The position numbers and the translations under genes were made by a program. From NCBI GenBank assembly GCA_016200265.1, contig JACQFE010000038.1:13539-77538 (forward strand): DNA of 64,000 nt, written 5' to 3'. Source of the stretch: Planctomycetota bacterium (GTDB lineage: Bacteria > Planctomycetota > Phycisphaerae > UBA1845). Numbering within the stretch: the first letter of the stretch is position 1; each line of letters opens with the position of its first letter. This document shows, piece by piece, positions 2,802 to 48,704 of this stretch. The notes beneath the pieces are model-generated. The model did not search any database. It saw only the letters and a program-made list of their open reading frames with translations, and had not been told where the DNA came from.

Positions 2802-5084
2802 ATGTCTCGCATTCTTTACGGCTTCGCATTCATTACGCTCGTCGTCATCGCCGCCCTGCGTCCTCTAATTGCGGAAACCTACGACTCGTCGCCCGCGACA
2901 ATCAGCCTAGCGGACCACAACATCACCGACCCGCAACCGATTCGAACGCTGGTGATTGATTTGGCAATCCTCGCGGCGGGTCTTGCGTGGGCAGGTGCGC
3001 GACTCAAGCCGAATGTGGCCAGATATCGTTGGACGGGCCTGGAGCCGGCCCTGATCATCATCGCCTGCGCGAGCGTTTTGTCATGCACCTCCGCGGGAAA
3101 CAAGCGCCTCGCAATCAATGCTTCGATAGACTGGCTTTGCTCGGGGGTGCTTGGCATAGTGCTCGTGCAAGTCATTCGGACGCCGTGGCAAAGGAATGTG
3201 TTGCTGGCGGCTGTGCTCGCCACCGCGGCCGTGCAGTTCACCCAGTGCGTCGACCAACGCGCATCCACGGAGGATACGTGGAAGCAATACCAACAAACAA
3301 GGGCTGAGTTCTGGCGAAAGCAAGGGATCGATTCCGAATCGAATCACGTGGCCTTGTTTGAGGCCCGAATGCGAGCCAACGAGTCTTCCGGATACCTGCC
3401 GCATAGCAATGTGACGGGATCATACTTCGCGATGTGCGGCCTGGCCGCGGTCGGCGTGACGATTGCGACATGGCGAAATCTCCTGACGTCTCGGCGATTT
3501 CTGCTTTTTTTGGGCTTGGTCGCATTGATGATTGCGCTGCTTGCCGGAATCGCGATGACGAAAAGTCGCGGGGCCGCGACATCATTCGTCTTGGCATTGA
3601 TTCTTTGGCTCGTCGTGTGGCGCGCACAAGGATGGATCGACTCTCATCGGCGGCAAGCATTCATGATTGGATGGATCGGTTTAGCTTTGATTCTAGTCGC
3701 GGTAGTCGGGCATGGAATTTATCACGGCACACTTCCGACGGATTCGCTGGCGTTTCGCTGGCACTATTGGCGGAACTCGATGGGCATGATTTGCGACCAC
3801 TGGTTTGCTGGAGTGGGCCGCGAGAATTTTGGCCGTCAATATCTCTTGTACAAGCCGATCGAAAGCCCCGAAGAAATCTCCAATCCGCACGACGTGTTCG
3901 TCCAGGCCGCCGCCGAGTGGGGGATTTTCGGGTTGATCGGCATTGTGGCTTTGCTCCTCGGTGCGTCGTGGGCACTGACAATGGGCCGATCGCATACCAA
4001 TGTCGCGACAAACTTGAATCTTGAATCTCTTGAAGCGTTGGCACATAAGTCCAAAGCGTCCGCACTTCGGCTGGGACTCCTTGGAATCATCATGGCAGTT
4101 GCGTTGACCGTGATCCGAATGCCACTCTTTGGCACCTGCGACAGAAGTTATCTGTATTATATGAGCACGCTGACGGCGATTGTTTGGCTGCCAATATTTG
4201 CTTGTGTTGCCTTCGCGTTGTCATGTGTGAAACCGGAAGTGCGAAAGTCGGTGGCTCTTGCAGGCGCGGCGTTTGGATTGTTTGCGTTCGCGTTGCAAGA
4301 GCTTATCAACTTCTCCCTTTTCGTTCCAGCCACTGCGACGACTGCGTTTGCAGTGTTTGCATGCGCGATCCCCGATTCGAACCGTGCGGCGATACGTCGG
4401 GAAACGACTGGAGATCATCGTACGATTCACGCTGTGCGGCGATGGCTTTTGACTCTCGCAACAACAGTTGCAATTGTGATGATCGCGCCAATGGAGGCTG
4501 TTCCGGTTTTTCGAACAGGCGCGCTGTTGTCGGAAGCGCGATCGCAGGCAATGATTCGTCCCCTCGGACATCCGGAAAATTCCGAAGCCGCGAACTTCTA
4601 CGAGCGTGCAGCAGCGGCCGATACGCTCGATCCCACGGCGTTCGTCGAACTCGCGCGATGGCTGGGCTCGATTGCTCCATTAGCGCCGCAGTCTGCGGCC
4701 ACATTCTCGCGGGCAGTTGAATTTGTCCAGGCGGCTCAGCAGCGAGACAAGTACAGCCATTCTCTGCGCCGCCTCGAGTTGCTCCTGTGTCGCGATCAGG
4801 CACGCCGAACAAGTGCGGCCACTAACTACGAAGCGGCGATCCACGCAGGCGACGAGATGCTGAAATTGTATCCCCTTGATCCGGCTGGGTTGGTGCTTGT
4901 GGGCGAGCTTCAACTTGAAGCCGCAAGAGCTACAAACTCTGATCTTCTTCGTTTCGCCGGTCTCGACTCGCTTCAGAAGGGGTTGGATTTGGATTCGCGC
5001 CGCCCCCGATGGTCGGTGTTTCAAGGTCTTACGGAATCGGAACGGGCCCGCGTGTCGCAGGAGATCGCCAATTGGCGAAAGTGA
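2802..5084 (+). CDS. O-antigen ligase-like (Wzy_C) polytopic membrane protein with C-terminal TPR-like helical domain
   Basis: Many TM helices. PHDVFVQAAAEWGIFGLIGIVALLL matches the H-N/D-x-[FY]-[LV]...E-x-G-x-x-G Wzy_C motif. The likely start is MSRILYGFAFITLVV at 2802 (alternative ATG at 2760); the track start 2694 is an upstream extension. Confidence 0.75.
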   Translation: MSRILYGFAFITLVVIAALRPLIAETYDSSPATISLADHNITDPQPIRTLVIDLAILAAGLAWAGARLKPNVARYRWTGLEPALIIIACASVLSCTSAGNKRLAINASIDWLCSGVLGIVLVQVIRTPWQRNVLLAAVLATAAVQFTQCVDQRASTEDTWKQYQQTRAEFWRKQGIDSESNHVALFEARMRANESSGYLPHSNVTGSYFAMCGLAAVGVTIATWRNLLTSRRFLLFLGLVALMIALLAGIAMTKSRGAATSFVLALILWLVVWRAQGWIDSHRRQAFMIGWIGLALILVAVVGHGIYHGTLPTDSLAFRWHYWRNSMGMICDHWFAGVGRENFGRQYLLYKPIESPEEISNPHDVFVQAAAEWGIFGLIGIVALLLGASWALTMGRSHTNVATNLNLESLEALAHKSKASALRLGLLGIIMAVALTVIRMPLFGTCDRSYLYYMSTLTAIVWLPIFACVAFALSCVKPEVRKSVALAGAAFGLFAFALQELINFSLFVPATATTAFAVFACAIPDSNRAAIRRETTGDHRTIHAVRRWLLTLATTVAIVMIAPMEAVPVFRTGALLSEARSQAMIRPLGHPENSEAANFYERAAAADTLDPTAFVELARWLGSIAPLAPQSAATFSRAVEFVQAAQQRDKYSHSLRRLELLLCRDQARRTSAATNYEAAIHAGDEMLKLYPLDPAGLVLVGELQLEAARATNSDLLRFAGLDSLQKGLDLDSRRPRWSVFQGLTESERARVSQEIANWRK

Positions 5085-5119
5085 ATTCGACTTTGAACTT
5101 TGAATTTCGAGCCTTGAAC
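5085..5119. repeat. Tandem heptamer array, about 5 units of TTYGARC
   Basis: Read directly: attcgac tttgaac tttgaat ttcgagc cttgaac. It begins at the ligase-like gene stop codon and ends 12 nt from the tRNA-Arg 3-prime end. Confidence 0.8.
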
Positions 5120-5130
5120 TTTTTCGCATT

Positions 5131-5204
5131 CGTCCCCGACAGGATTCGAACCTGTAACCTTCGGCTTCGGAGGCCGACGCGCTATCCAATTGTGCCACGG
5201 GGAC
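5131..5204 (-). tRNA. tRNA-Arg (anticodon CCG)
   Basis: The minus strand GTCCCCGTGGCACAATTGGATAGCGCGTCGGCCTCCGAAGCCGAAGGTTACAGGTTCGAATCCTGTCGGGGACG folds as a cloverleaf. Acceptor is GTCCCCG/CGGGGAC, anticodon arm TCGGC-CTCCGAA-GCCGA, T-arm ACAGG-TTCGAAT-CCTGT. There is one A-C mismatch in the D stem and no encoded CCA. Confidence 0.88.
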
Positions 5205-5806: not shown

Positions 5807-7483
5807 ATGCGTTCAATGCGGCGAAACATCTTATATGGTTGCTGTATCATGCTTTCGCTATTCGTTCCTTCGATACAAAATGCTCACGGTCAGGCCTGCC
5901 CACAATGGACTCAACAATCGCCCAGTTCATTGCCTGACGGCTTTGGACCAATGGCGTACGACTCGCTGCGCAATGTTGTAGTAATGTTTGCTATGAGCTC
6001 CTTGGGTGTGCTTGAAACGTGGGAATGGAACGGTGCCCAGTGGGTCTTCAGGACCTCGGTAGGCCCCTCCGCTAGAAATGCCGCGTTGGCATTCGATAGT
6101 AATCGTGGCATGGTCGTTCTTTTCGGGGGACTGCTTCCCAACGGACTTGGCCAGCCGCCACCGCTTTCCTCGGAAACGTGGGAGTGGGATGGAAGCGATT
6201 GGACCTTTCGAACTGACGAGGGTCCACTCTGACGACTTGACCACGCCATGGTGTTCGATTCGCACCGAAACCGCGTAGTGCTGTTTGCAGGAGATCGGCC
6301 ACAACAACAACCTACGCTTTTGAGTGATACCTGGGAATGGAATGGAAGTGTGTGGGTGCAAGTGGCGACTGCCGGCCCTGACAAGCGTGCAAGTCACTCG
6401 ATGGCCTTTGACGAACATCGTGGTGTCACGGTGATGTTCGGCGGAGCGAATATTAGTGGCCGTTTGGCGGACACGTGGGAATGGGATGGTTCAATTTGGC
6501 GTCGAGTGGAAGACGGAACTTCAGGCCCGTCACGGCGAGTGGGCGCAGCGATGGCCTATGATCTTGACCATCAACGAAGCGTTGTTTTTGGGGGAAGCGG
6601 CACGAATCCACCCTGGTACTCCGATACCTGGGTTTGGGACGGGCAATACTGGGATATTTTGAACACATCCGGTCCCACAGCCCGAACTGGTGCATACCTG
6701 GCGTACATGTGTGCGTCGCACTACATGTTAATGGCGGGCGGCAGCGGATTCGCCCCGTTCTCCGATTTGCAATGGCAGCTTAGAGACATAGCGGATTTCC
6801 CGAGTGATGGGCCGAGGGCGGAACGGTATCCGTCTTGCGAAAGCTTTTATTCATATGCCAAAAAAAACCGCGTCATTTCGTTTTCGCCACCCCTTGTACC
6901 ACTGGGAGCGAGCGGGATCGGTTTGCGGGTGACGTTTGAGTCGCTACCAAATGGCTCAATTTGCGCTACGCCGAATTTTTCGTCATTCAACGGCGCTCGA
7001 ATGTGGGTGGGCGAGGAAGTGCTTCAAAGCGGGCAGCAGAGCGGCGTCTTCAAATTGCAAACAGACCCTCTGTTCCGCGATTGGACCACGGTCCCCGGCG
7101 GTGTCATTCACGTAAGCGATTGCAACATTGTTCCCTGCGCCACATACACCATCCAATCCATTTCGGACGTTGACTATCCTTTGGGCACGTATTCGACACC
7201 GCTTCTGCTTTCGACTGCCCCTGCCTGGGGAGATGTCGTTGCCTCGAATGACCCCGTGCCGCCGAACGGCGTTGTGAACATTTCCGACGTAGCCGCAATC
7301 GTCGATTGCTTTAAGGACATACCCGGCGCGCCGCCAAAGAGCTGGTGTGATCTGGTGCCGGACAATGTCACTCATCAGATGAACCTCGTCGTCAATATCT
7401 CAGACGTTGCAGCGGGTGTCGATGCATTCAGGGGTCGGACGTACTCACTTTCCGGCCCAACCGCTCCCAGTGCGTGTCCATGA
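5807..7483 (+). pseudogene. Secreted Kelch/galactose-oxidase-like beta-propeller protein with dockerin-like C-terminal repeats, interrupted by one in-frame TGA (6230-6232)
   Basis: Track ORFs 5756..6232 and 6248..7483 are in the same frame (offset 492 nt). Both carry the same repeat (TWEWNG/TWEWDGxxW ... GPxxRxxxxMAFD). The TGA sits at a variable position of that repeat: GPL*RLDHAMVFD versus GPSARNAALAFD, GPDKRASHSMAFD, GPSRRVGAAMAYD. The signal peptide MRSMRRNILYGCCIMLSLFVPSIQNAHG starts at 5807, preceded by GGAGGAG. Confidence 0.6.
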
Positions 7484-7496
7484 GACCTCGGGCCTG

Positions 7497-8618
7497 TCAG
7501 GTCGCTAACTCACGGATGATGGCGCAGCCGCGGCGGAGGCGATCGTCGGGGACACCGAAGCTGAGGCGGAAGTGAGTGTCCTGGCGGCTGAAAACTTCGC
7601 CGGGGATGACGAGCAGTTTTCGTTCAATGGCGGCGGCGACGAACTCGGTCGAGTTCTTGTAGCGCTTCGGAACTTTCGGAAACAGATAGAACGCACCGGA
7701 CGGTTTCACAAATTCGAGGCAGCCGCGCAATTCTTCGCAGGCGAGATCGCGCTTGCGGCGATAATCGTTCACTTGCTGCGAGATGTCGGTATCCAAGGCC
7801 TCCAGTGCGCCCCATTGACCCGGCTGCGGCGCGCACACGAACGTGTACTGCTGGAGCTTGGCCATTTCTTCGATGATTTCGCTCGGTCCGGCGGCAAAGC
7901 CGAGGCGCACGCCGGTCAATGCATACGATTTTCCGAAGCCGCGCAAGAGCAAGGTGCGTTCGGGCGCGAATTTGACGGGCGACGGGATTGGTGCGTCAAA
8001 ATGAAGAAGATCGTAAATCTCATCGGCGATGATCAACAGATCGTGCTTGCGGGCCAATTCGCAGATCGCGCGAACGTCGCTCTCGCGAAACACGACGCCG
8101 GTGGGGTTGCTCGGTGAGGCGATGATGATCATCTTCGTTCGCGGCGTGATGGCGGCCGCAATTCGCTCGGGGTGCAATTGAAAATCGTCGTAAAGACTCA
8201 CTGGCACGGGCACGCCGCCGGACAACTTCGGTAGATGGGCATAAGAAACAAAATACGGATCCGTGATCAGCACTTCGTCGCCGGGATTCAGACATGCGAA
8301 CATGGCCAGCAAAATGCCGCCGGATACGCCGCAGGTGACGAACAAATCCGGCGACCAGCCGAACTCGGCCTTGAGCTGCTCGGCGATGCGCTTGCGAAGC
8401 TCCGGCAGGCCTCGCGTGGGCGTGTAGCCGTTCTTGTTCGATTCAACGGCCCGCGTGATGGCTCGTTTGATATTGGCCGGCACTTCGAAATCCGGCTGCC
8501 CAAGCGAAAGATCGATGGGGTCCTTGAGCTGGCTCCCTAGATCGAAAATCCTGCGAATGCCCGATGAGCCGATACTCTTGATGCGGTCGGAGAGAAAGTG
8601 ATTTGCGGATGAAGGCAT
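7497..8618 (-). CDS. Class I/II pyridoxal-phosphate aminotransferase (aspartate/aromatic type)
   Basis: The sequence from MPSSANHFLSDRIKSIGSSGIRRIFDL...LSLGQPDFEVP...SFGKSYALTGVRLGF... is a typical aminotransferase layout (the SxxK Lys motif appears here as GKSYALTG). The track ORF (to 9074) is over-extended through stop-free repeat DNA. The ATG at 8618 gives 373 aa. Confidence 0.85.
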   Translation of the reverse strand: MPSSANHFLSDRIKSIGSSGIRRIFDLGSQLKDPIDLSLGQPDFEVPANIKRAITRAVESNKNGYTPTRGLPELRKRIAEQLKAEFGWSPDLFVTCGVSGGILLAMFACLNPGDEVLITDPYFVSYAHLPKLSGGVPVPVSLYDDFQLHPERIAAAITPRTKMIIIASPSNPTGVVFRESDVRAICELARKHDLLIIADEIYDLLHFDAPIPSPVKFAPERTLLLRGFGKSYALTGVRLGFAAGPSEIIEEMAKLQQYTFVCAPQPGQWGALEALDTDISQQVNDYRRKRDLACEELRGCLEFVKPSGAFYLFPKVPKRYKNSTEFVAAAIERKLLVIPGEVFSRQDTHFRLSFGVPDDRLRRGCAIIRELAT

Positions 8619-8713
8619 CAATTCATTCTTCAAGAGGCCCGGAGTTCGGCAACTCTGGGACAGCATATTCGGGCTTTGCGAGCCGTCAATCTTCTTGAGG
8701 AATGCACGGTTTC

Positions 8714-8740
8714 CGCAGATTGCGCAGATTTTCGCAGATC
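8714..8740. repeat. Triplet of CGCAGAT[TC] octamers with 9- and 10-bp spacing (array 1)
   Basis: CGCAGATT at 8714, CGCAGATT at 8723 and CGCAGATC at 8733. The array is followed by 9-nt-period GAAGTGCAC GAAGAACAC GAGGAGG. Confidence 0.8.
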
Positions 8741-8978
8741 TTTTACGACGAAGTGCACGAAGAACACGAGGAGGCCGGGTGCCGCATGGTTTGCGCGGCG
8801 AATCGAGAGTAACCAACTTAAGATCATGAAATCGCGCCACCAGATTGCAAACGTCGCAACCTGGGCCACTCCGGGCGTAAAGCGAAACTTTGAGTTGGGT
8901 TCGTTTGGTAAGGATAAATTTCACTAATGTCATGGCGTGGCACCGCAGTGCGGATTGCCGATTCTCGAGAGCAAGACT

Positions 8979-9006
8979 GAAGATTGAAGATAGAAGAGTG
9001 AAAAAG
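8979..9006. repeat. GAA-heptad array (4 units)
   Basis: gaagatt gaagata gaagagt gaaaaag, read directly. Confidence 0.75.
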
Positions 9007-9020
9007 GACGAGACAATCGC

Positions 9021-9047
9021 CGCAGATTCCGCAGATTGGCGCAGATT
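9021..9047. repeat. Triplet of CGCAGATT octamers with 9- and 10-bp spacing (array 2)
   Basis: CGCAGATT at 9021, 9030 and 9040. The order and spacing are the same as array 1, 307 bp upstream. Confidence 0.8.
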
Positions 9048-9129
9048 GAAGATGCGGGGGCACATGATTTCCACGTAGATAGAACGTTAAAGGTGATCGG
9101 CGAATTGTGGGAATTCGGCGAGCCCCGAG

Positions 9130-11221: not shown

Positions 11222-11969
11222 GGCCGTGGAGCGGGCGGTAAGCCGAATCCTGTTCGTCCGCGTTTACTTACCGCTTCCTTACGGGGCGCGGCTCTGTTCA
11301 AGAAACCGCGCGAACTGAAGTTCGCGGCTCGCGTTTGGGCGCGGCTCGGAAAATATATGGTGCATCAAGATGCACCCTACGAAGTGCGGACGCGGCGATC
11401 ATGTGTCTAGGTCGGCGGTCACCCGTCGACTCAAGCGCCCTACCCGCAGCTGTCGAGCTTTCGCTCATCGAGGCGGGCCGCCTCTCGCTGCTTATTTGGG
11501 CTTGCTGGCGGTGGGGTTTGCCCTGCCGCGATGGTCACCCACCGCGCGGTGCGCTCTTACCGCACCATTTCACCCTTACCGGGGAAACGTTGAAACATCG
11601 AAAAGTCGAAATAACGTCGTTCAATAGAGGAGAAAATCGAGCGATCCGAACGATCATTTCACAAGGCGGCCAAGGAGATTCAAAGCCCCTAAGAAAATCC
11701 AATGAATCGTCGGGCCGATTGACCGACCGATTCGATTCAAATGTCCTGCCCTTTTGATCCCAAGGTGCTTTCCTTTTCGATATTTCGACTTTTCGATGTT
11801 TCAACGCTTCCCCGGCGGTTTGTTTTCTGTGGCACTTTCCCTCGGCTTACGCCGGGTTGGCGTTACCAACCACCGTACCCTGTCCAGTTCGGACTTTCCT
11901 CTCGAAGGGTATTGGCCGCAAGCATCGAGATTGCGCCCTTCGAGCGATCGCCTTGCCCGCTCCACGGCC
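11222..11969 (-). ncRNA. rnpB: RNase P RNA, bacterial type A, unusually long (about 748 nt)
   Basis: All conserved blocks are present on the minus strand:
- GAGGAAAGTCCGAAC (11901-11887).
- ACAGAAAACAAACCGCC.
- AAGGGTGAAATGGTGCGGTAAGAGCGCACC (about 11577-11548).
- GGCAAACCCCACCGCCAGCAAGCCCAAATAAG.
- GGGTAGGGCGCTTGAG.
- CCTAGAC.
- ACAGGATTCGGCTTA.
P1 is formed by GGCCGTGGAGCGGGC (11969-11955) pairing with GCCCGCTCCACGGCC (11236-11222). P4 shows compensatory changes relative to my recollection of E. coli M1 RNA (AAGUCCGAA pairs with UUCGGCUU). The ends are good to about 10 nt. Confidence 0.88.
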
Positions 11970-11975
11970 ATTGGC

Positions 11976-11981
11976 ATTGTA
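11976..11981 (-). promoter_or_regulatory. Candidate -10 box (TACAAT) for rnpB
   Basis: Minus strand reads ...GAATTGTGTACAATgccaatGGCCGTGGAGC. TACAAT ends 6 nt before the first P1 nucleotide. No convincing -35 was seen. Confidence 0.35.
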
Positions 11982-12004: not shown

Positions 12005-12071
12005 GAAGTTCAAAGTTTGAAATTCGAAGTTCGAAGGAAGATCGAAGAGCGAATGGCGAAGATTGAAGAAT
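12005..12071. repeat. Composite heptad array: block A GAAGTTC-type (12005-12036) plus block B GAAGAKC/GAATGGC-type (12037-12071)
   Basis: gaagttc aaagttt gaaattc gaagttc gaag | gaagatc gaagagc gaatggc gaagatt gaagaat. Positions 12043-12063 are identical to 47425-47445 (21 nt). Confidence 0.85.
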
Positions 12072-12213
12072 GTAAAGGCAACATGGCATAAAAACCCGGA
12101 GAAATCGCGGAATCCGAGAAGGTTCGCTTCGCTCAGCATGACAAGTCCTTTGGTCAGAATGACGGTCGCGCGGTCAGTGGACACGGTTCCTCAAACGCAC
12201 AATAATCTCGTTC

Positions 12214-12825
12214 ATGGAAACGCAGCGTATTGAACAATTTCGAAAAATGGCCAAGGAAGACCCGGATAATGAGTTGGGTCATTTCAGCCTTGGGAAGGCC
12301 TGTCTGGATGCGGGAATGCCTAAGGATGCGATCGCGCCGCTGGCACGGGCGATTGAACTGAAGGCGACGCTTTCAAAGGCGTATCAACTGCTGGGCGAAG
12401 CGCATGATCGTGCCGGTCAACGAGCCAAGGCGATCGATGTCCTGACGCGGGGCGTGAAGATTGCGGACGCCCAGGGTGACCGAATGCCGCGTGATGCGAT
12501 GGCGAAAATGCTTCGCGATTGGGGCGCACCGGTGCCGGAATTCAAGTCCGCATCGGCAGGGGGTTCAACCGCCGGCGACACCGGATCGGTGTCGGCCACC
12601 GGATTTCATTGCACGCGCTGCGGACGACCGACGGGTCAACTCGCCAAGCCGCCGTTCAAGGGCGAAATCGGCAGCAAGATATACGACCATATTTGCCAAA
12701 GCTGCTGGCGAGAGTGGATCGGCATGGGGACCAAAGTCATCAACGAATTGGGTCTCGTGCTAAGCACACAAAGCGGCCAGCAGGCGTACGATCAATACAT
12801 GTTGGAATTTCTGCAGCTCGAATAG
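12214..12825 (+). CDS. TPR-domain protein fused to Fe(2+)-trafficking / oxidative-damage protection protein YggX
   Basis: The C-terminal 75 aa (FHCTRCGRPTGQLAKPPFKGEIGSKIYDHICQSCWREWIGMGTKVINELGLVLSTQSGQQAYDQYMLEFL) follow the YggX pattern. The N-terminal roughly 110 aa are TPR-like helices. Confidence 0.8.
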   Translation: METQRIEQFRKMAKEDPDNELGHFSLGKACLDAGMPKDAIAPLARAIELKATLSKAYQLLGEAHDRAGQRAKAIDVLTRGVKIADAQGDRMPRDAMAKMLRDWGAPVPEFKSASAGGSTAGDTGSVSATGFHCTRCGRPTGQLAKPPFKGEIGSKIYDHICQSCWREWIGMGTKVINELGLVLSTQSGQQAYDQYMLEFLQLE

Positions 12826-12866
12826 CAAGTCACATTTCACGCCCGTTCAGACGCGAAGAAAAAGAT

Positions 12867-12932
12867 CGAAGTGCGAATACTGAAGATCGAAAAAAGCGAT
12901 CAACCCCTTCGATCTTCGCCATTCGCACTTCG
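12867..12932 (-). terminator. Long hairpin built from inverted GAA-heptad blocks; likely intrinsic terminator for the pseudopilin gene (possibly bidirectional)
   Basis: CGAAGTGCGAAT (12867-78) pairs with ATTCGCACTTCG (12921-32). GAAGATCGAA (12882-91) pairs with TTCGATCTTC (12908-17). The stem has a 3x3 internal loop and a 16-nt apical loop. On the minus strand it is followed by ATCTTTTTCTTCG. Confidence 0.6.
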
Positions 12933-12948
12933 CTCTTGGTCACCTCGG

Positions 12949-14948: not shown

Positions 14949-16559
14949 TCACGCTCGCACGGGCGCACCGACTTGCGGGCCCGCAGCGGCGACGGCGGCA
15001 CTGACGTTTCTGAAGGATTGGAAATTTCGCGAGAACAGCTCGGCTAAGTGCCGGGCGCGAGAATCATAAGCAATCGGATCGGACCAGGTGGAACGCGGGG
15101 TGAGCAATTCGGTCGGAACATCGGGGCATCGTTGCGGAACCATGATTCCGAAGACAGGATCAGGAGTGGTCGGCACGCCGTTCAGCCGACCGGCGAGGGC
15201 CGCTGAAACGAGCGCCCGTGTGTAACGCAGGCTGATTCGGTCTCCCACGCCGACTCCGCCGCCGCTCCAGCCGGTGTTCACCAGCCAGCAATCAACTCGA
15301 TGCCGCGTCAACTTCTCGCCCAGCATGGTCGCGTATCGCTCCGCCGCCAGTGGAATGAATGGCGCAGAGAAGCAGGCACTGAAAGTGGCCTGCGGCTCAG
15401 TGACACCGGCCTCGGTTCCCGCGATTTTCGCCGTGTAGCCGGACAGAAAATGGTACATCGCATGGTGCTGTGAGAGCTTCGCGATGGGCGGCAGGACTCC
15501 GAACGCATCACAGGTGAGAAACACGATGTTTCGAGGATGCCCGCCGACGCTGGGCAGAACCGCGTCCTCAATGTGCTCCAATGGATACGCGGCGCGCGTA
15601 TTCTCGGTGTACTGGCTCGAATGATAGTCGATCATTCTTGTCGCCTCGTCCATGGCCACGTTTTCAAGAACAGCGCCGAATCGAATGGCTTTGTAGATCT
15701 GCGGCTCGAGCTGCGGCGAAAGTCGAATGCACTTCGCATAACACCCGCCTTCGATATTGAACACACCGTGATCGCTCCAGCCATGCTCGTCGTCACCGAT
15801 GAGGCGACGCTCCGAATCCGCGGACAAGGTCGTCTTACCGGTGCCGCTTAGACCAAAGAAAAGCGCTACATCCCCGGCGCGGCCGACGTTGGCCGAGCAG
15901 TGCATGCTCAGCACTCCCTGGGTCGGAAGCATGTAATTCATCACCGTGAAGATGCTCTTCTTGATTTCGCCGGCGTACGACGTCCCACCGATGAGCACCA
16001 TCCGCTTGCCCATGTGAGCCACGATAAAAGACTTTGAATTTGTCCCATGGAGCGATGGGTCGGCCTGGCACGACGGCACCGAAATAACCGTGAATTTCGG
16101 CTCATGACCGGTGGTGCTTCCGGGTGCAGGGCGAATGAAAAGCTGCGATGCGAAGAGGTTATGCCAGGCGAGTTCGGTGATGACCCGAATCGGAAGACGC
16201 GAAGACTCGTCGGCTCCGGCAAACATGTCGCGCACGTACAGCCGTCGGCCACGGCAATGACGAAGAAAGTGTTCAAGCAAAGCATTGAAATGTGCTTCGC
16301 TCATTGGGCGATTGGATTTCCCCCAGGCGATCTGCTCGTGCGAACCCGGCTCATCGACGAAAAATTTGTCATTGGGTGAGCGGCCGGTGAACTTGCCGGT
16401 GCGACAAACGATCGCTCCATTGTTCGCAAGTTGGGCCTCCTGATTGCGGAGCGCCTGCTCGTAAAGTTCCGCCGCGGGCAGGTTCCAATGAATCTCTCCG
16501 CAATCCACGAAGCCGTGATGATCGAGCCCGATGCGACTTTGGCCGTATCCTTTGACCAA
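14949..16559 (-). CDS. pckA: Phosphoenolpyruvate carboxykinase (ATP)
   Basis: 536 aa with FFGLSGTGKTTLSAD (kinase-1a) and an overall ATP-PEPCK layout. The start is TTG, preceded by GAGAGGA. Confidence 0.92.
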   Translation of the reverse strand: MVKGYGQSRIGLDHHGFVDCGEIHWNLPAAELYEQALRNQEAQLANNGAIVCRTGKFTGRSPNDKFFVDEPGSHEQIAWGKSNRPMSEAHFNALLEHFLRHCRGRRLYVRDMFAGADESSRLPIRVITELAWHNLFASQLFIRPAPGSTTGHEPKFTVISVPSCQADPSLHGTNSKSFIVAHMGKRMVLIGGTSYAGEIKKSIFTVMNYMLPTQGVLSMHCSANVGRAGDVALFFGLSGTGKTTLSADSERRLIGDDEHGWSDHGVFNIEGGCYAKCIRLSPQLEPQIYKAIRFGAVLENVAMDEATRMIDYHSSQYTENTRAAYPLEHIEDAVLPSVGGHPRNIVFLTCDAFGVLPPIAKLSQHHAMYHFLSGYTAKIAGTEAGVTEPQATFSACFSAPFIPLAAERYATMLGEKLTRHRVDCWLVNTGWSGGGVGVGDRISLRYTRALVSAALAGRLNGVPTTPDPVFGIMVPQRCPDVPTELLTPRSTWSDPIAYDSRARHLAELFSRNFQSFRNVSAAVAAAGPQVGAPVRA

Positions 16560-21248: not shown

Positions 21249-23126
21249 CTAACGACGATTTGCTTGCGATGAGCAGCCTGGAACCCTGCCACTCAACCAC
21301 TCTTCGAAGAGCAGAAGATCACCAGCATCGACCTGGCCATCGCGGTTAAAATCCGTCAAGGCGCATTGAGATAAGTCGACCGGCTCGATCCCAGTCGTGC
21401 CGAAGCACTGTTGAAAGGCGGCGAAATTCGAGAGATTGACTGAATAGCGATAGATTGCTGAGCCGTCGGGCGCTTGCTCGATTGTGTACCGCCGATCAAT
21501 CTGCGTGGTCGTAAACTGCACTTCGTCGCGATTCGGCCAAACCACGCGAATCTGAACCGACGATACGTCGTCAACACCCAAACCAAAGTGCAAATCGTAA
21601 GGCCGGCCGGAAAGATAGCTTCCGCCGGCGATGATGTCGCGCCGGTAGGTAGGGCCGCCGGACTGCAGAAACACTTTTGCTCCGATCGCATCGGAATTGA
21701 ATCCGCACGTGCCGACCAGATGCACGTCGATCCAATGCCCGCTCGGCGTCGTTTGATTCTCGATTAGGACCACAGAGGCCGGAGGTTGACCGATGCTGGT
21801 GACGAGCAAATCCTGTCGGCCGTCCTGGTTGTAATCGAAGGCGATTGCGCAGCGGGCATCGGTTGTAAAGTCCGCGCCGGTGCCAGAAGAACGCGTGAAG
21901 TGCCCCATTCCATCGTTGAAGAAAAGCACCTCGGGCGTGTTCGCAAGAGGATAAGCCGGTCCAACAAAGGCGCTGATGAACTCCTTAAATCCGTTCACAG
22001 CGTACAGATCGAGCGAGCCGTCATTGTCCACGTCGATCCATTCCGTGCCCCAGCCCCAATATGTATTCGCGACCCCGCGGGCGACGGCCTGATCAACAAA
22101 TGTCAGCGTGCCCGTCTCGCTCAACTGATTGATCAGCAGAGTGTTGTTTTGACCGTTCCCAAAATGATTGCCTGTGTCGGTGATATTGGTAGAGTAGATG
22201 TCGAGATCGCCGTCATTGTCGAAATCGCCTACCGCAAGACCCATGTCATTTCCCTTATGCGTCGCGCCCACGGCCACGGTCTGCTCCACGAAGAATCCAC
22301 CGTCATTGCGGAAATACGCGTCGGATGTGTGGTCGATGGCTAAATACAAGTCCACATCGCCATCGTTGTCGAAATCCGCGAAAATGCACGTATACGTGTC
22401 GCGATTGATTTCAGGCAAGCCAGCGGCGGTCGTGGCATCTTCGAATTGAAAATTGCCGAGATTTCGGAACAGCCGATCATGGCCGGGCCATGTTGGAGGG
22501 GGCATTGCAACGTCCATTAGCCATAGTCCGACAAAGATGTCAATCAGTCCGTCGCCGTCATAATCGCCAAGACAGGCGCCGCCTTTGATGTAACCCACAG
22601 CATCAAATCCGGATGTGGCAGTCATGTCCGTAAATGTCGAACCGTTGTTCTTGTAGACGCGGCAGGGGGGAGTCGTTCCCGTTGTGTCCTGATCATTGAT
22701 GATCAGGAGGTCTTTGAGGCCGTCGTTGTCCAAATCAACGAAGAATGCGACTCGACCGATCGCGGCGTCATTCACACCCGTTGTGGCAGTTATGTCGCTG
22801 AAGACTCGGGCGCCGTTGACCAAATCATTTCGATAAAAGTGCCGTGGCTGGTTGGCATTATTGAGCAGATACACGTCGAAGTCGCCGTCGTTGTCAAAGT
22901 CGCCGACAGCGGCCCCGTTGCCCATGTTGCGCTGCATTATTTGCATCGTAGTAAGATCGGCCTCGGCATCTAATGCATCACTAAAAGTGAATGAGTATGG
23001 GTTCCCATACTGCACGGTATGCACCAGTCCTCGCTGTGTGGCAATGTTGACAAAACGAACTTGAGCGAAAGCGGGCGCGAACAAGGCCAAATTCAACGCA
23101 AAGCTGCAGAGCCAAAGTGGGCGCAT
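21249..23126 (-). CDS. Secreted FG-GAP/VCBS-repeat protein with ASPIC/UnbV-like C-terminal region (CRTAC1 family) and dockerin-like tail
   Basis: Repeated GDFDNDGDxDxY motifs, and the tail DFNRDGQVDAGDLLLFEEWL. The signal peptide MRPLWLCSFALNLALFAPAFAQ begins at 23126. The track start 23177 would translate the heptamer array (MKSEVQNSKFEVQIQNF). Confidence 0.8.
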   Translation of the reverse strand: MRPLWLCSFALNLALFAPAFAQVRFVNIATQRGLVHTVQYGNPYSFTFSDALDAEADLTTMQIMQRNMGNGAAVGDFDNDGDFDVYLLNNANQPRHFYRNDLVNGARVFSDITATTGVNDAAIGRVAFFVDLDNDGLKDLLIINDQDTTGTTPPCRVYKNNGSTFTDMTATSGFDAVGYIKGGACLGDYDGDGLIDIFVGLWLMDVAMPPPTWPGHDRLFRNLGNFQFEDATTAAGLPEINRDTYTCIFADFDNDGDVDLYLAIDHTSDAYFRNDGGFFVEQTVAVGATHKGNDMGLAVGDFDNDGDLDIYSTNITDTGNHFGNGQNNTLLINQLSETGTLTFVDQAVARGVANTYWGWGTEWIDVDNDGSLDLYAVNGFKEFISAFVGPAYPLANTPEVLFFNDGMGHFTRSSGTGADFTTDARCAIAFDYNQDGRQDLLVTSIGQPPASVVLIENQTTPSGHWIDVHLVGTCGFNSDAIGAKVFLQSGGPTYRRDIIAGGSYLSGRPYDLHFGLGVDDVSSVQIRVVWPNRDEVQFTTTQIDRRYTIEQAPDGSAIYRYSVNLSNFAAFQQCFGTTGIEPVDLSQCALTDFNRDGQVDAGDLLLFEEWLSGRVPGCSSQANRR

Positions 23127-23137
23127 AAAGTTCTGTA

Positions 23138-23170
23138 TTTGAACTTCGAACTTTGAATTTTGAACTTCAC
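23138..23170. repeat. Tandem heptamer array TTYGAAY x4.5
   Basis: tttgaac ttcgaac tttgaat tttgaac ttcac. It ends 12 nt upstream of the FG-GAP gene ATG on the minus strand. Confidence 0.85.
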
Positions 23171-23185
23171 TTTTCATAAGAATTC

Positions 23186-23222
23186 GGGCAGGGGGCGAAA
23201 GAAGGTCTTTCGCACCCTGCCC
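23186..23222 (-). terminator. 17-bp hairpin (1 mismatch) between the giant secreted-protein gene and the FG-GAP gene
   Basis: GGGCAGGGGGCGAAAGA-agg-TCTTTCGCACCCTGCCC. No U-tract follows on either strand, so its role (terminator, processing or stability) is open. Confidence 0.4.
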
Positions 23223-23266
23223 GATCCAATTAATTCTAAATCACGATTTTGGCGCCGATCGAAACA

Positions 23267-23297
23267 TCACATTCGATCTTCGCCAATCACTATTCGC
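23267..23297. repeat. Degenerate GAA-heptad block (minus-strand reading GAATAGT GATTGGC GAAGATC GAATGTG)
   Basis: The plus strand attcgatcttcgccaatcactattcgc resembles cttcgatcttcgccattcgc at 12907-12926 and the reverse complement of 47430-47449. Confidence 0.6.
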
Positions 23298-23307
23298 AAT
23301 TGTCCCA

Positions 23308-26300
23308 TCACGGCGCGTCGCAGCCGGCGTTGGGATCGACCGGCTTGCTGGTGATGGTTCCAGTGATGCCGATGTAATCCTGGAAGCCGTCGGGATTGTG
23401 GTCCGTTTCAATGGCCACGATCCGCTTGCCGGTGAAGTTCACGAAACCGCCCAGATCCAAGCCGTTCTGTTCCAGCGGCGGGGTGTTGTCCTTCAGCTTG
23501 TTCTGCAAAATGTCGAATGTTTGCGTCTTGCCCGCCTGATTGTTTAGGAAGTCCAGATCAAACGTGGCCGAACTTCCGTTGCACGCCACGCCGAAAGGCG
23601 TGTCCCGATTGATCGACAAGAAGTTGAACTTCAATCGATCTCGTCCCGTGTTCGGATTGTGGTCGAACTGCATGGAGAGATTCAAATCAATGGTCATGCA
23701 GAACTCCCACAGGATGCAATCCGAAGTCGCCGTGCTGTTCGGCAGATTGTCTGCATCGAGGTCCCCGAACGTACACATCGGCGTCGAATCAATCGATCCA
23801 GTGTCGAGGATCTGATTGTTCGCCCGGTCCGCGATCAGATAGAGCGAGATCTGCGGATAGCGCAGGGTGACTTCCACATCCGGCGTGTTGGGATCGTCAT
23901 CCAGCAACAATACTGGCGGATTTTGCACGGAACCGTGGAAGATGATGTTCGTTCCCGTGCGGATGTTGGTGTTCCGCCCGATGCGACTGCCCCGACGACA
24001 CTGCCGCCGGAACTCCGACCCAAATGGGAACTGCGTGCAATCGCCATCCTGGAAGCCGATACATCGGGCCTCCTGCGAACTGTCGACAACACTCGTATTT
24101 CCGCCGATGCCTGCACAGTCCGACGGAACCAACGTGCCAAGCTGCTTGCTCACCTCGAATTGTGTCTTGAGCTTGCCCGTCTGCACCATGCTGTAGAACA
24201 ACTGATTAAACACGTCCGCAGCGATGGCGATTGTAACGTCTTCCACTGGATTGCCGGCCGCGTCCACGATCGGCGGGATCGGGATTGGAGCGTTTTTCAG
24301 CGGAGTGCCCGGAATGTTCGCCGCCTGCGGATCAATGTCGGCCGCATCCGGAGCGAAGCCGGCGCCAATGGTCACGGCGATGCCCGTACTTCCGATCGCT
24401 GCATCCGTGATCTTGCTGTCCTTCTGCTTCGTGCCGAACTGCGGCAGATCGTCGTTCTTGAACTTCACGAAATCCGTGTCCATCGGGTCACCGTCCTGAG
24501 AATTGAGCCGCTGCTGAATCTGGTCTCCGGTCATCTCGAAGGAGATGTCGCTGAGACTTGGATCCCATAATCCGAATGTGATTACCTCCGCGAAGAAGTC
24601 GATCACGTCGAGAATGAAGCCCAGCAGGCAGCCGATGTCCACATCGCCGCTGATCTTGGTGAAATCGTTGGGGTCGCTCTCGCCCAGGTCGAACGTCATG
24701 TGCAATTTTTCGCGCTGATCCCGCGGCAGATTGCCCTGCAAGATGTGGGGTCGATCGAGGTCGAAGGACACAGACATGTTCTTCTGATTGAAGCGTCCAT
24801 CGACGTTCACCGTGACGCACACCGCGCACGCGCAGCCGCCGAATGCACAGATGCATCCGTCCTGGCAGTAGCCGCTGAAATGTGCCGTGATGTCCACCGG
24901 CGGCAACCCGATCTTCACATGGATGACGCCCTCTCGCGGATCGGGGGTTACCGAGTTGTCCGATGTCACGTTCAGTGAGAACTGGTCCAGCGTGATATCC
25001 GTGTTGTTGACGATCATCTTCGTCGGCGGATCGCACGCTCCGTCAACTTTCAGTTTTTTCTCCTTGGTCGGCGTTCGCTTCAAGGCGTCCTTGGCCTGGT
25101 CGCCCAGGCACTTCTTGCTCTTGTTCTTCATCGCGTCGAAAAAGTTCGTCACGCCAGAGTCGTTGATGGCCAGCACGAATGCTCGATCAACAAAGCTTGG
25201 ATCGGTCGCCGTGTTGGAATGGGCCGAGGAGGTGACCGGCGCCGGTCCGGGGATGACCGGACCCACGGCGAAGAAGAACGAGTCATAAACCGCGTTGAAG
25301 TCTCCGTCGAGAGCCTGGGCGATCAAACGGTTGGACCCCGGATCGAACGTGCCCGGTAATCCACCATGTGCCGAAACCGCATTCCGAAGGTCGGTCACAG
25401 GAACATTGACGTTAATCGGAAGAACGTATTTCTCGCCGCCCGATGACCCACCCGGGGTGTGAATCTGCCCACTTGGATCCACGGAGAAACCGTTGATGTT
25501 TGCGCTCGCGATCGGAACACCGTGGCACGCCTCGCCCTGGACATTTATCGTCGCCGGATGATCGCCGACGATTTGGCCCGCTATTGGCGAAGTAATATTG
25601 ATCGTGAACACGATCGATGTGCCCGTATCCTTCAGATCATCGATATAGCACGAAGCGGCCGGACGACCCGGTGGACTTGGGAAAACGCCCGCCTGTCGCT
25701 GGCCGGAGATTTCAACGACGTGTGTTCCGCAGCCCAAACCGCCAACGGTGAAGCCCACAGTGTTCGACGCGGAAACGTCTATCGCGCCGGAACTTACGGT
25801 CAACAAGCTAATGGACACCGTGGCCCCATTGATGTTAGCTGTGCCGCTGTAGGGACCGCCGGGGAACGCCGTTGCGGGATTCAAACCGATCCCGATCGGA
25901 GTCGCCTGCAGGATATCGACCCCATCAATCATGATGACCAGGGTCTTGGGATCAACCCGCGGCATCGCCGCCAGCACCGGCGTGTCGCCACCGGCCCCTG
26001 TGACCACTGAATTGGAAGGCTGAATCACTTCGAGGAAGGGAATATTCGAACAATACGCCTCCGCACGGTTATCGCCGTCCTGGGCGATGACCCGCAGCAT
26101 CGGCACGGGCGCAAACACCTGATGGCTCACTCCCCGAGCGCTGGTCGTGTCCTTGAAAATGAAATCCTTTGGTGAGATTCGGCTGGCCAGATGGGCTTCG
26201 TCACCTTTCTTGACCAGCTCGCTGCGGAGGACATTTCCTTCCTGATCCAAAGCCATGATTTCCGCGGTAATCACCGTGTTCGCGCTGCCATTATGGCTCC

Positions 26301-47410: not shown

Positions 47411-47424
47411 AATTCACTAAATGC

Positions 47425-47492
47425 CGAAGAGCGAATGGCGAAGATCGAAGCGTGTTTTTTCCGGAATCCCGATCCACCGTATTCGCTCTTCG
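47425..47492. repeat. GAA-heptad block plus inverted partner forming a 12-bp-stem hairpin in the tuf-rpmG spacer
   Basis: gaagagc gaatggc gaagatc gaagcgt occupies 47426-47453. CGAAGAGCGAAT (47425-36) pairs with ATTCGCTCTTCG (47481-92). Positions 47425-47445 are identical to 12043-12063. Confidence 0.8.
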
Positions 47493-47498
47493 CTTTTC

Positions 47499-48704
47499 TT
47501 AATCCGCCAACACTTTCGTCACTACACCCGAACCCACCGTGCGTCCGCCTTCGCGAACCGCGAATCGCAGACCTGATTCCATTGCCACGGCCTTGAAAAG
47601 TTCCACGTTCATCGTGATGTTATCGCCGGGCATGCACATTTCGGCGCCTTGCAGCGTCAGTCCGCCGGTGACGTCCGTCGTGCGGAAATAGAATTGTGGG
47701 CGATAGCCGTTGAAGAACGGCGTATGTCGTCCGCCTTCCTCCTGCGTCAAAACGTAAACCTGTGACTCAAACTTCTTATGTGGGTGAATCGTGCCCGGGG
47801 CTGCAAGCACCTGGCCTCGTTCGATTTCTTCTTTCTTCGTACCGCGGAGCAGGCAGCCGACGTTGTCGCCCGCGATACCTGAATCCAGCGTCTTGTTGAA
47901 CATTTCGACGCCGGTGACAGTTGTCTTTTGAGTGTCCATCAGGCCGACGATTTCGACTTCCTCGCCGACCTTGATCTGTCCGCGTTCGATACGCCCAGTA
48001 GCGACCGTGCCGCGACCCTTGATGCTGAACACGTCTTCGACGGACATGAGGAACGGCTGGTCGATGTCGCGCTTCGGCATAGGAACGTAGGTGTCCAATG
48101 CAGTCATCAACTCATCGATGCACTTAGTTTTCTCGGGATCCTTCGGATTCTGAAGGGCGGGCAGCGACGATCCACGTATGACAGGAACGGCATCGCCCGG
48201 GAAATCGTACTTGGTAAGTAGCTCGCGCACTTCCATTTCGACGAGGTCCAGGAGCTCCGGATCGTCAACCAAGTCGATCTTGTTCAGGAACACGACGAGG
48301 CACGGCACGTTCACCTGGCGAGCCAGAAGAATGTGTTCACGAGTTTGAGGCATCGGACCGTCCGCGGCGGACACGACGAGAATAGCACCGTCCATCTGGG
48401 CCGCGCCCGTGATCATGTTCTTCACATAATCCGCGTGTCCCGGGCAATCGATGTGCGCGTAGTGTCGATTCGCGGTTTCATATTCAACGTGTGAAGTTGC
48501 GATCGTTAGAATTTTCGTGGGATCGCGGCGACCTTGCGATTCCGACGCCTTGGCGACTTCGTCATAGGAAATTGGCTTTCCGAGTCCTTTTGCCGCCTGA
48601 ACCGTACAAATCGACGCAGTCAGCGTCGTCTTGCCGTGATCTACGTGCCCGATGGTGCCCACGTTGACGTGGGGTTTCGTCCTTTGGAATACGTCTTTCG
48701 CCAT
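47499..48704 (-). CDS. tuf: Elongation factor Tu
   Basis: [30 protein letters not shown]...[26 protein letters not shown]... Confidence 0.98.

Follow-up and report, generated by a model that had tools for sequence, protein, structure and literature searches.

Short intergenic heptanucleotide arrays in a planctomycete genome, probably slippage-made, and the hairpins formed by their inverted pairs

A 64,000-nt stretch from a Planctomycetota bacterium of the class Phycisphaerae (GenBank assembly GCA_016200265.1, contig JACQFE010000038.1, positions 13,539 to 77,538 of the forward strand), here called the window, carries a set of short tandem arrays whose units are seven nucleotides long. We favour, with moderate confidence, the explanation that these are short intergenic heptanucleotide simple repeats that were made by slippage and are kept from genes, and that inverted pairs of them form 3′ hairpins that may have been co-opted. 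Slipped-strand mispairing within an array would both give birth to arrays and homogenise their units, and the arms of paired arrays are indeed more uniform internally than they are complementary to their partners, as slippage within the array would have it. Arrays would survive only outside reading frames: seven is not a multiple of three, so changes in the repeat shift the frame. Two arrays of one family in inverted orientation would let the DNA or its transcript fold as a stem-loop of 13–33 bp, and stem-loops past gene 3′ ends may have been co-opted for termination, processing or stabilisation. No step would call for a dedicated reader protein. An earlier sequence-only reading had proposed an oligomeric protein that reads a GAA triplet every 7 nt; judged by array sequence, context and turnover, such a protein seems neither needed nor supported. 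Between relatives, arrays are rapidly gained, lost and changed in unit, and one of the units occurs in at least three phyla.

Strict period-7 arrays outside genes

The arrays described by the sequence-only reading are all present, at exactly the coordinates given or a few bases away, and their strict 7-nt period emerges alike from a tandem-array search, a relaxed scan and a unit-blind self-similarity scan. Tandem Repeats Finder (TRF) reported period 7 with 3.7–4.7 copies at 5090–5122, 8973–9002, 12005–12036, 12037–12062 and 23141–23168. The relaxed scan, which required at least 15 of 16 defining positions across four heptads, returned eight clusters at seven sites for period 7 and 0–2 clusters for periods 5, 6, 8, 9 and 10; period 7 also stands out in the self-similarity scan. 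As measured against 200 dinucleotide-preserving shuffles of the window, GAANNNY arrays are far commoner than expected. Five strict arrays of at least three units are present versus a shuffle mean of 0.185 (maximum 2), and three arrays of at least four units versus 0.005. The array sequences recur identically in the Planctomycetes metagenome-assembled genome (MAG) contig JACOTE010000040 (GCA_016178855.1) and in four independent Logan assemblies, which excludes an assembly artefact.

The arrays are confined to non-coding DNA, as had been claimed: all eight period-7 clusters of the relaxed scan are 100% non-coding, and GATCGAA and GTTCAAA are the 7-mers with the highest intergenic enrichment in the window. 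Convergent, divergent and co-directional spacers are all occupied. The contexts singled out earlier, namely the neighbourhood of rnpB, the tuf–rpmG spacer and a spacer between convergent genes at 12854–12945, hold, and arrays do create spurious extensions of open reading frames (ORFs), for example MKSEVQNSKFEVQ.... An Rfam scan of the window recovered only rnpB and tRNAs, whether gathering thresholds were applied or E-values up to 1 admitted. A promoter and terminator scan left the arrays unflagged and gave the same counts as in shuffles.

Two recurring flavours of unit were correctly distinguished from the outset, but the arrays are not one family, and the array at 8973–9006 has a third type of unit. 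Flavour A (consensus RAARTTC, about 4.5 units) forms direct arrays and has three copies in the window. The array at 5085–5122 (minus-strand units AAAGTTC AAGGCTC GAAATTC AAAGTTC AAAGTCG) lies 1 nt past the stop codon of a plus-strand gene for a Wzy_C-domain protein and lies 9 nt beyond the 3′ end of a minus-strand tRNA (5131–5204). The array at 12005–12036 (plus strand, GAAGTTC AAAGTTT GAAATTC GAAGTTC GAAG, found by both TRF and the relaxed scan) abuts the rnpB promoter at its −35 slot and covers about −36 to −68. This promoter, on the minus strand, has the −10 element TACAAT at 11976–11981 and a −35 slot without a recognisable hexamer. The third array, at 23138–23170 (minus strand, GAAGTTC AAAATTC AAAGTTC GAAGTTC AAA), lies 12 nt upstream of the probable start (ATG near 23128, MRPLWLCSFALNLALFAPAFAQ) of an FG-GAP/ASPIC protein, and is the only one of the three with a start codon nearby. 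None of the three has an inverted partner, and flavour A gives no folding signal (z −0.8 and +0.65, listed for 5085–5122). Its arrays are AT-rich in a genome of 56% GC.

A reading of flavour A as a −35 element, whether of the extracytoplasmic function sigma type (GAAC) or the sigma-70 type (TTGAAC), was rejected because the spacing to any −10 element is unfit. Some arrays could fall within translated sequence. The ORF at 23126–23177 (minus strand) has a possible start, MKSEVQNSKFEVQIQNF..., that would translate the flavour A array, and an alternative start 17 codons later at MRPLWLCSFALNLALFAPAFAQ that would begin a typical signal peptide. In metagenomes, locus L134 has an ATG with GGAGG 6 nt before it; the array behind this ATG would be read as MKIQSSKFKV, ahead of a hydrophobic stretch. 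On occasion, therefore, translation of a flavour A array may supply the N-terminal region of a signal peptide.

The third unit type, at 8973–9006 (plus strand), consists of 4.3 copies of AAGATTG, laid out as GAAGATT GAAGATA GAAGAGT GAAAAAG. Its unit, GAAGAKT, lacks the closing C, and the array has no significant fold. It lies in a repeat-rich spacer of about 510 nt (8619–9129) upstream of an aminotransferase gene, whose start is probably near 8618 (minus strand, MPSSANHFLSDRIKSIG...) and not at the GTG at 9074. The same spacer holds two sets of AATCTGCGS repeats with a period of 9–10, at 9012–9050 and 8708–8745.

Turnover among relatives and spread across phyla

Comparison with relatives shows how unstable the arrays are. 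One of them, L015 (90% protein identity), keeps the rnpB–yggX synteny and has flavour A at the matching place by the rnpB −35 slot; the flavour B copy that follows in the window is absent from it, together with about 131 nt around it. In L016 (85% identity) both promoters are present and neither array is, and four further relatives (L017, L018, L011 and L013; 68–82% identity) have neither the synteny nor any arrays. The rnpB-upstream array of L015 differs at only one of 31 positions from the window array at 23138–23170, so flavour A is a dispersed repeat sequence and more than a mere motif. The two flavours had been described as adjacent at two places in the window; at one of them, 23138–23297, the blocks are about 100 nt apart with a GC-rich hairpin between them. 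Obligatory adjacency was rejected, as L015 has A without B and B-like 6-mers are not enriched beside A arrays. Both flavours occur together at a few metagenome loci (L021, L041 and L082).

Orthologous spacers can also carry different units. The spacer upstream of ftsK, compared in three related Bacteroidia, is occupied by (AGTTCRA)x9 in one, by a decayed array in another and by (TTCCATTG)x5.6 in the third; behind an NlpC/P60 gene, one relative has GTTTCGC x6.9 where another has GTTGCAG x3.9 (loci L068, L144 and L145 in these comparisons). Arrays thus persist while their unit evolves, a case of concerted evolution in a simple repeat; from a fixed recognition sequence one would not expect such a change of unit at one site. 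In L144, which covers 22 kb of a Bacteroidia contig of 4.38 Mb, arrays of three different units lie at 4869–4937, 5950–5981 and 15522–15569, all intergenic by the called genes, and one orthologous site in L145 (7680–7706) has a different unit.

Flavour A reaches far beyond the window genome. A 19-mer common to the window and L015 (TCAAAGTTCGAAGTTCAAA) matched at least 120 metagenome loci, where roughly a few matches would be expected by chance (a rough estimate, for a collection of unstated size). The matches belong to (AGTTCRA)n arrays, and the GC content of their contigs ranges from 31 to 76%. Among the 120 matches listed, to which the following counts refer, 72 arrays have 4–5 units, with a tail to 21 units. 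A 9-unit array lies on a Bacteroidia contig whose FtsK is 82–85% identical to those of named Bacteroidia or Bacteroidales MAGs, and a 21-unit array on a contig of Ca. Auribacterota (at 89% identity with Ca. Erginobacter occultus). At L054 (2967–3139), three 5-unit arrays follow one another at a spacing of about 66–72 nt, separated by a GC-rich palindrome, and so form a higher-order tandem repeat of array plus hairpin. L031 has a long period-7 array with TAACTGA and TAACTCT units (2482–2564) and a flavour A array on the same contig.

Genes at these loci were mapped crudely, as longest ORFs, and the context statistics are correspondingly crude. Gene gaps hold 57% of the arrays versus 18% of random positions. 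The 51 classifiable gaps comprise 14 and 16 co-directional (one count for each array orientation), 11 convergent and 10 divergent, a distribution matched by the gap-length shares of 0.29, 0.25, 0.25 and 0.21. There is accordingly no preference for a type of gap, nor, at 14 versus 16, for an orientation relative to co-directional neighbours. At distances of more than 300 nt from their flavour A seeds, these loci contain another 93 arrays of period 7, as compared with 20 of period 8, 12 of period 6, 5 of period 9 and 3 of period 10. Their units include ATTTGCG, CAGTAGT, AATGAGC, GGTGAAT, TAACTCT and more, some of them as inverted pairs. It follows that period and unit are independent of each other.

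Two narrower associations were tried and rejected. A link to tRNAs or other stable RNAs, suggested by the window arrays at 5085–5122 and 12005–12036, is not significant given the intergenic location: only two of the 120 arrays are tRNA-adjacent. Flavour A does lie 6–40 nt from tRNA genes in three cases (L072 2465–2614, L081 1042–1158 and window 5085–5204), and the letters of its GTTCRAA core are identical to those of the tRNA T-loop. Carriage by phages was likewise dismissed, since viral contigs gave three matches to a flavour B 18-mer, all chance ones in coding sequence, and two matches to the flavour A 19-mer.

These observations bear on the possibility that the arrays are protein-binding sites in DNA. 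Operators of the omega repressor string together 7-bp WATCACW heptads, without gaps and in both direct and inverted orientation. The arrays could be operator-like sites of this type, with one heptad per protein subunit, or sites resembling UP elements or those of nucleoid proteins. Contiguous heptads in both orientations and the size preference of 4–5 units speak for this, and the absence of any preference for gap type or orientation is what one would expect of a DNA-level site. In favour, too, are the flavour A array that abuts an rnpB −35 slot without a hexamer and keeps its position and its RAARTTY form in L015, and the AT-richness of flavour A in this genome. We nevertheless consider such sites unlikely. 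Convergent spacers, which are free of promoters, are occupied equally; set beside omega- or ParR-type operators, one window array stands at the rnpB −35 slot and others between convergent genes. L016 keeps both promoters without an array, the many unrelated heptamer units per genome would demand as many reader proteins, and the unit changes at one site between relatives.

A reader acting on RNA appears very improbable. UAG triplets at a spacing of 7 nt are what HutP recognises, and a cold-shock domain spans 6–7 nt. One triplet per heptad might be read by an oligomeric protein like TRAP or HutP, or by a string of cold-shock or S1 domains whose footprint is about 7 nt. The 23138–23170 array, with a probable start codon 12 nt downstream of it, would suit such a reader, and sense arrays may cluster just past stop codons, a signal which may itself be an artefact. 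There is also a precedent in the proposal that cold-shock, S1 or CsrA proteins read TAACTGA heptads (PMC4679880). Orientation relative to co-directional neighbours is, however, inconsistent, the window arrays sit in all types of spacer with none in a leader that has competing terminator and antiterminator structures, and most other heptamer arrays at the related loci lack GAA. Leader sites of the TRAP or HutP type were rejected on the same mixture of spacer types and strands (14 versus 16).

Inverted pairs, their hairpins and their polarity

Flavour B (GAAGAKC/GAATGGC) is a dispersed sequence of about 35 nt, of which alignment and nhmmer find six copies at four sites; an nhmmer search of the window with the flavour B model returned none beyond the six copies used to build it. 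An inverted-pair arrangement is found at all four sites. The sequence-only reading had given the array at 12868–12895 an inverted partner, which it has, and the arrays at 23268–23308 and 47412–47453 turn out to have partners as well. The paired arrangement, with significant folding of two of the pairs, explains their placement without a protein.

The strongest hairpin spans 12850–12945 and fills the spacer between two convergent stop codons. Its 5′ arm is the copy at 12854–12899 (plus; nhmmer E 1.4e-7) and its 3′ arm the copy at 12904–12945 (minus; E 3.4e-9), with the variant GAAGTGC common to both. It folds at −38.0 kcal/mol (z −6.1) on the plus strand and at −42.6 kcal/mol (z −5.4) on the minus strand. 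A second hairpin (47412–47505) fills the tuf–rpmG spacer, flanked by the genes for EF-Tu and L33, with arms at 47412–47453 (plus; E 3.8e-9) and 47466–47505 (minus; E 1.2e-5; GCGAAGAGCGAAT / ATTCGCTCTTCG). GAAGAGC is present in both of its arms, and it folds at −30.2 kcal/mol (z −2.9). Both hairpins begin 7–33 nt from a stop codon. The third pair, 23241–23308 (minus; E 1.7e-7), joins the copy at 23268–23308 to a short inverted partner at 23241–23262 and makes a shorter hairpin directly past the stop codon of a 1504-aa gene, with UUGGCG/CGCCAA and GAUCGAA/UUCGAUC paired. The z of −6.1 obtained here belongs to the whole 146-nt region, including a neighbouring GC-rich hairpin, and not to the pair alone. 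That neighbour, at 23184–23226 (GGGCAGGGNGCGAAAGA...TCTTTCGCNCCCTGCCC), separates the flavour B from the flavour A array, is strong, has no clear U-tract and is probably the real 3′-end structure of the 1504-aa gene.

These three pairs sit right behind gene 3′ ends. At the fourth site, the flavour B block at 12030–12071 (plus strand; GAAGATC GAAGAGC GAATGGC GAAGATT GAAGAAT; E 3.7e-8) is 4 nt out of phase with the flavour A block and belongs to the stretch of about 131 nt absent from L015. Its inverted partner at 12108–12138 (minus strand; GAGCGAAGCGAACC) is degenerate and weak, though it pairs in the minimum-free-energy fold. The fold of 12030–12138 is not significant (z −0.5), and this pair sits in a divergent promoter region. 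Flavour B stems are in general long, of mixed composition and up to about 33 bp, with variable loops. The scan of the window found no array or flavour B hairpin among terminator-like sites, and no T-run follows the stems.

Pairing extends to flavour A in metagenomes, where 28 of the 120 arrays among the matches listed have an inverted partner array within 200 nt and 92 have none. Read as AGTTCRA, the arrays have TTGAAC and GAACTT in the flank 3′ of the array 57–60 times, versus about 4 expected. The pairs fold at −12 to −67 kcal/mol, mostly at −30 or stronger. In many of the stems every seventh base is mismatched, a periodic A–C that arises because each arm has been homogenised to its own variant.

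Several observations weigh against slippage as the whole explanation. One is polarity: among the matches listed, 26 pairs read 5′-(AGTTCRA)n...(TYGAACT)n-3′ and three the opposite way, where independent neutral arrays would give 1:1, and from this we infer some selection on pairs. The rnpB-upstream flavour A array of L015 is identical to that of the window at 26 of 32 positions, as against 8 of 20 in the adjoining spacer; its changes all fit RAARTTY, and its position by the −35 slot is kept within 2 nt. Array sizes cluster at 4–5 units (the same 72 of 120). The recurrence of one unit at several sites within a genome and across phyla is not what random births of simple repeats would predict, and array length shows no heterogeneity among the four Logan assemblies of the strain. 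Sense-oriented flavour A arrays start less than 10 nt past an upstream stop codon in 16 of 43 cases versus 4 of 37 in the opposite orientation, a signal that may be an artefact of stop triplets formed by the first unit. Finally, the part of the window genome examined is 64 kb, and the metagenome contexts come from the crude gene map described above.

The polarity suggests that pairs are selected as transcript 3′-end hairpins, A-rich on their 5′ side and U-rich on the 3′ side. Taken further, the hairpin itself could be the functional unit: inverted pairs would be selected 3′-end RNA elements, whether terminator-like, processed in the manner of RNase III substrates or stabilising, and solo arrays their precursors or remnants. 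We regard this as a possible, less likely account. The strong folds at 12850–12945 and 47412–47505, the closeness of both to stop codons and the 23241–23308 pair directly behind another all speak for it. An analogous polarity is seen in all four flavour B pairs of the window, none of the ten classifiable inverted pairs among the matches listed lies in a divergent spacer, and the arms of each strong hairpin share a variant. Such an element is harder to reconcile with stems that have no U-tract behind them and are not flagged as terminator-like, with periodic A–C mismatches in place of compensated pairs in many metagenome stems, with the partnerless majority of listed flavour A arrays and all three in the window, and with the weakly folded 12030–12138 pair in a divergent promoter region. 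Canonical terminator features were not found by the scan, and an intrinsic terminator was rejected as an identity for these stems, which are long, of mixed composition and without a U-tract directly behind.

Flavour B hairpins might also be small mobile elements, similar to repetitive extragenic palindromic (REP) sequences and REPINs or to miniature inverted-repeat transposable elements, that were spread by a transposase and in which the heptads are incidental. Six copies of a conserved core of about 25–35 nt at four sites in 64 kb, the block of about 131 nt that carries a flavour B copy in the window and is missing from L015, and a similar inverted pair in an unrelated MAG (L007) would agree with this. 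We think it improbable, since the boundaries of the indel show neither a target-site duplication nor clean terminal inverted repeats, the spacing of the arms and the loop vary from site to site, and flavour B lacks the GTAG/CGTC tag of the REP superfamilies (PMC3733652). A flavour B 20-mer is, moreover, almost absent from 185,579 species genomes, a collection outside which the window genome lies: of its five matches, four look like chance coding matches and the fifth is the pair in L007.

The case against slippage alone could also be read more boldly for flavour A. (AGTTCRA)n would then be a cross-phylum cis element, recognised or generated by a conserved factor with a footprint of about 7 nt, and the polar pairs a widespread and undescribed class of transcript 3′-end hairpin without a U-tract. 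The basis is the unit shared by Planctomycetota, Bacteroidia and Ca. Auribacterota, the preferred size of 4–5 units, the 26:3 polarity and the possible stop proximity. A T-loop-binding factor is one candidate for such a role, as GTTCRAA matches the tRNA T-loop GGTTCRAAUCC. We give this reading only a slim chance.

Neighbouring genes and known heptanucleotide repeats

The rnpB gene (11224–11963, minus strand) encodes an RNase P RNA of 740 nt, about twice the usual length. P12 carries an insertion of about 270 nt, and a further one of about 130 nt lies close to the 3′ end. At its base, the P12 extension forms a helix, both arms of which consist of GAAAnnUC units repeated in tandem with a period of 8 (11577–11612 and 11774–11811); L015 has the same arrangement. 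All four Logan contigs end at window positions 11545–11552, within the P12 hairpin, and this inverted repeat probably breaks short-read assemblies. On the other side of the arrays lies a gene (12214–12825) for a protein with a YggX-like Fe(2+)-trafficking domain and TPR repeats. A promoter-like sequence, TGGACA-17-AATAAT (12178–12213), kept in L015 and L016, ends 7 nt before its ATG, which suggests on sequence grounds that the mRNA is leaderless or nearly so.

Tandem heptanucleotides are also known from the non-coding DNA of heterocystous cyanobacteria, as STRR sequences (short, tandemly repeated and repetitive), whose arrays are often longer. STRR heptamers reportedly also occur inside the RNase P RNA gene (Vioque 1997, as cited in PMC2858038). 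The window thus shares with the cyanobacterial case both tandem non-coding heptamers and a repeat-built extension of an rnpB helix, P12. It differs in phylum (a Planctomycetes MAG) and units, and its rnpB-internal repeats have period 8. Membership in STRR1–3 was rejected given the units RAARTTC and GAAGAKC/GAATGGC and the non-cyanobacterial host.

The closest counterparts of the window arrays are found among long simple sequence repeats (LSSRs). Heptamers are the most abundant class of these in many bacterial genomes, according to Mrazek 2007 as cited in PMC4679880 and PMC4692102. For example, GGGAATC arrays of Xanthomonas and GGGGAYT arrays of Nostoc are intergenic, sometimes inverted, and variable at shared loci in close species (Rehm et al. 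2015, PMC4692102). Four features of the heptanucleotide class were tested, and the window arrays show each of them: head-to-tail units, abundance above chance, intergenic location and variation at a locus. The likeness extends to the over-representation of period 7, to some inverted pairs, and to arrays that lie between the same genes in related species and vary widely in length and sequence, as the GGGAATC and GGGGAYT arrays do. The window units are, however, not G-rich and form no quadruplex, the arrays have 4–5 units, and the host is a planctomycete. The AGTTCRA unit was not found in the literature searched.

Smaller sets offer further parallels. TAACTGA arrays of 2–6 units occur in marine Beggiatoaceae, some cyanobacteria and Bacteroidetes, and cold-shock, S1 or CsrA proteins have been proposed as their readers (MacGregor 2015, PMC4679880). 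They resemble flavour A in having few copies per set, an intergenic location and one unit in distant phyla with no evident mechanism of transfer. TAACTGA repeats, however, mostly run forward a few nucleotides upstream of start codons, a preference that flavour A lacks. Membership in the TAACTGA network was rejected because the unit differs and only one of the window's three flavour A arrays has a start codon nearby. Geobacter metallireducens has GGGACCG x4 at 49 sites, and MTYCTGA x5 is paired there on opposite strands (Aklujkar et al. 2009, PMC2700814). The small fixed number of heptads (4–5), the dispersed copies and some inverted pairs are shared with the window. These elements have been proposed, never shown, to be sites for a global regulator; their units and host are different, and some copies are intragenic.

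Flavour B recalls REP sequences and bacterial interspersed mosaic elements (BIMEs) as dispersed, imperfect intergenic palindromes, often past gene 3′ ends, where REP and BIME are thought to affect termination or mRNA stability. Its arms of about 35 nt, internal heptads, variable loops and missing GTAG/CGTC tag set it apart; REP membership was rejected because the alignment has no GTAG/CGTC head and the stems reach about 33 bp. Binding sites of omega, TRAP and HutP share with the arrays a strict short period, heptads in both orientations and the conceivable fit of one subunit per repeat, and differ in that the unit sequence is unrelated and the window sites are not limited to promoters or leaders.

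The practical value of these observations is modest. Arrays make false ORF extensions and long hairpins such as that of rnpB P12 break assemblies, and masking of arrays is advisable when planctomycete and other environmental genomes are annotated. With these arrays, Planctomycetota join the hosts of a class already known, the intergenic heptanucleotide repeats, and one of the arrays' units, AGTTCRA, is common in metagenomes and spans at least three phyla. Two asymmetries, the polarity of pairs and the possible proximity to stop codons, sharpen the questions of why units of seven nucleotides prevail and how one unit comes to reach such distant lineages.

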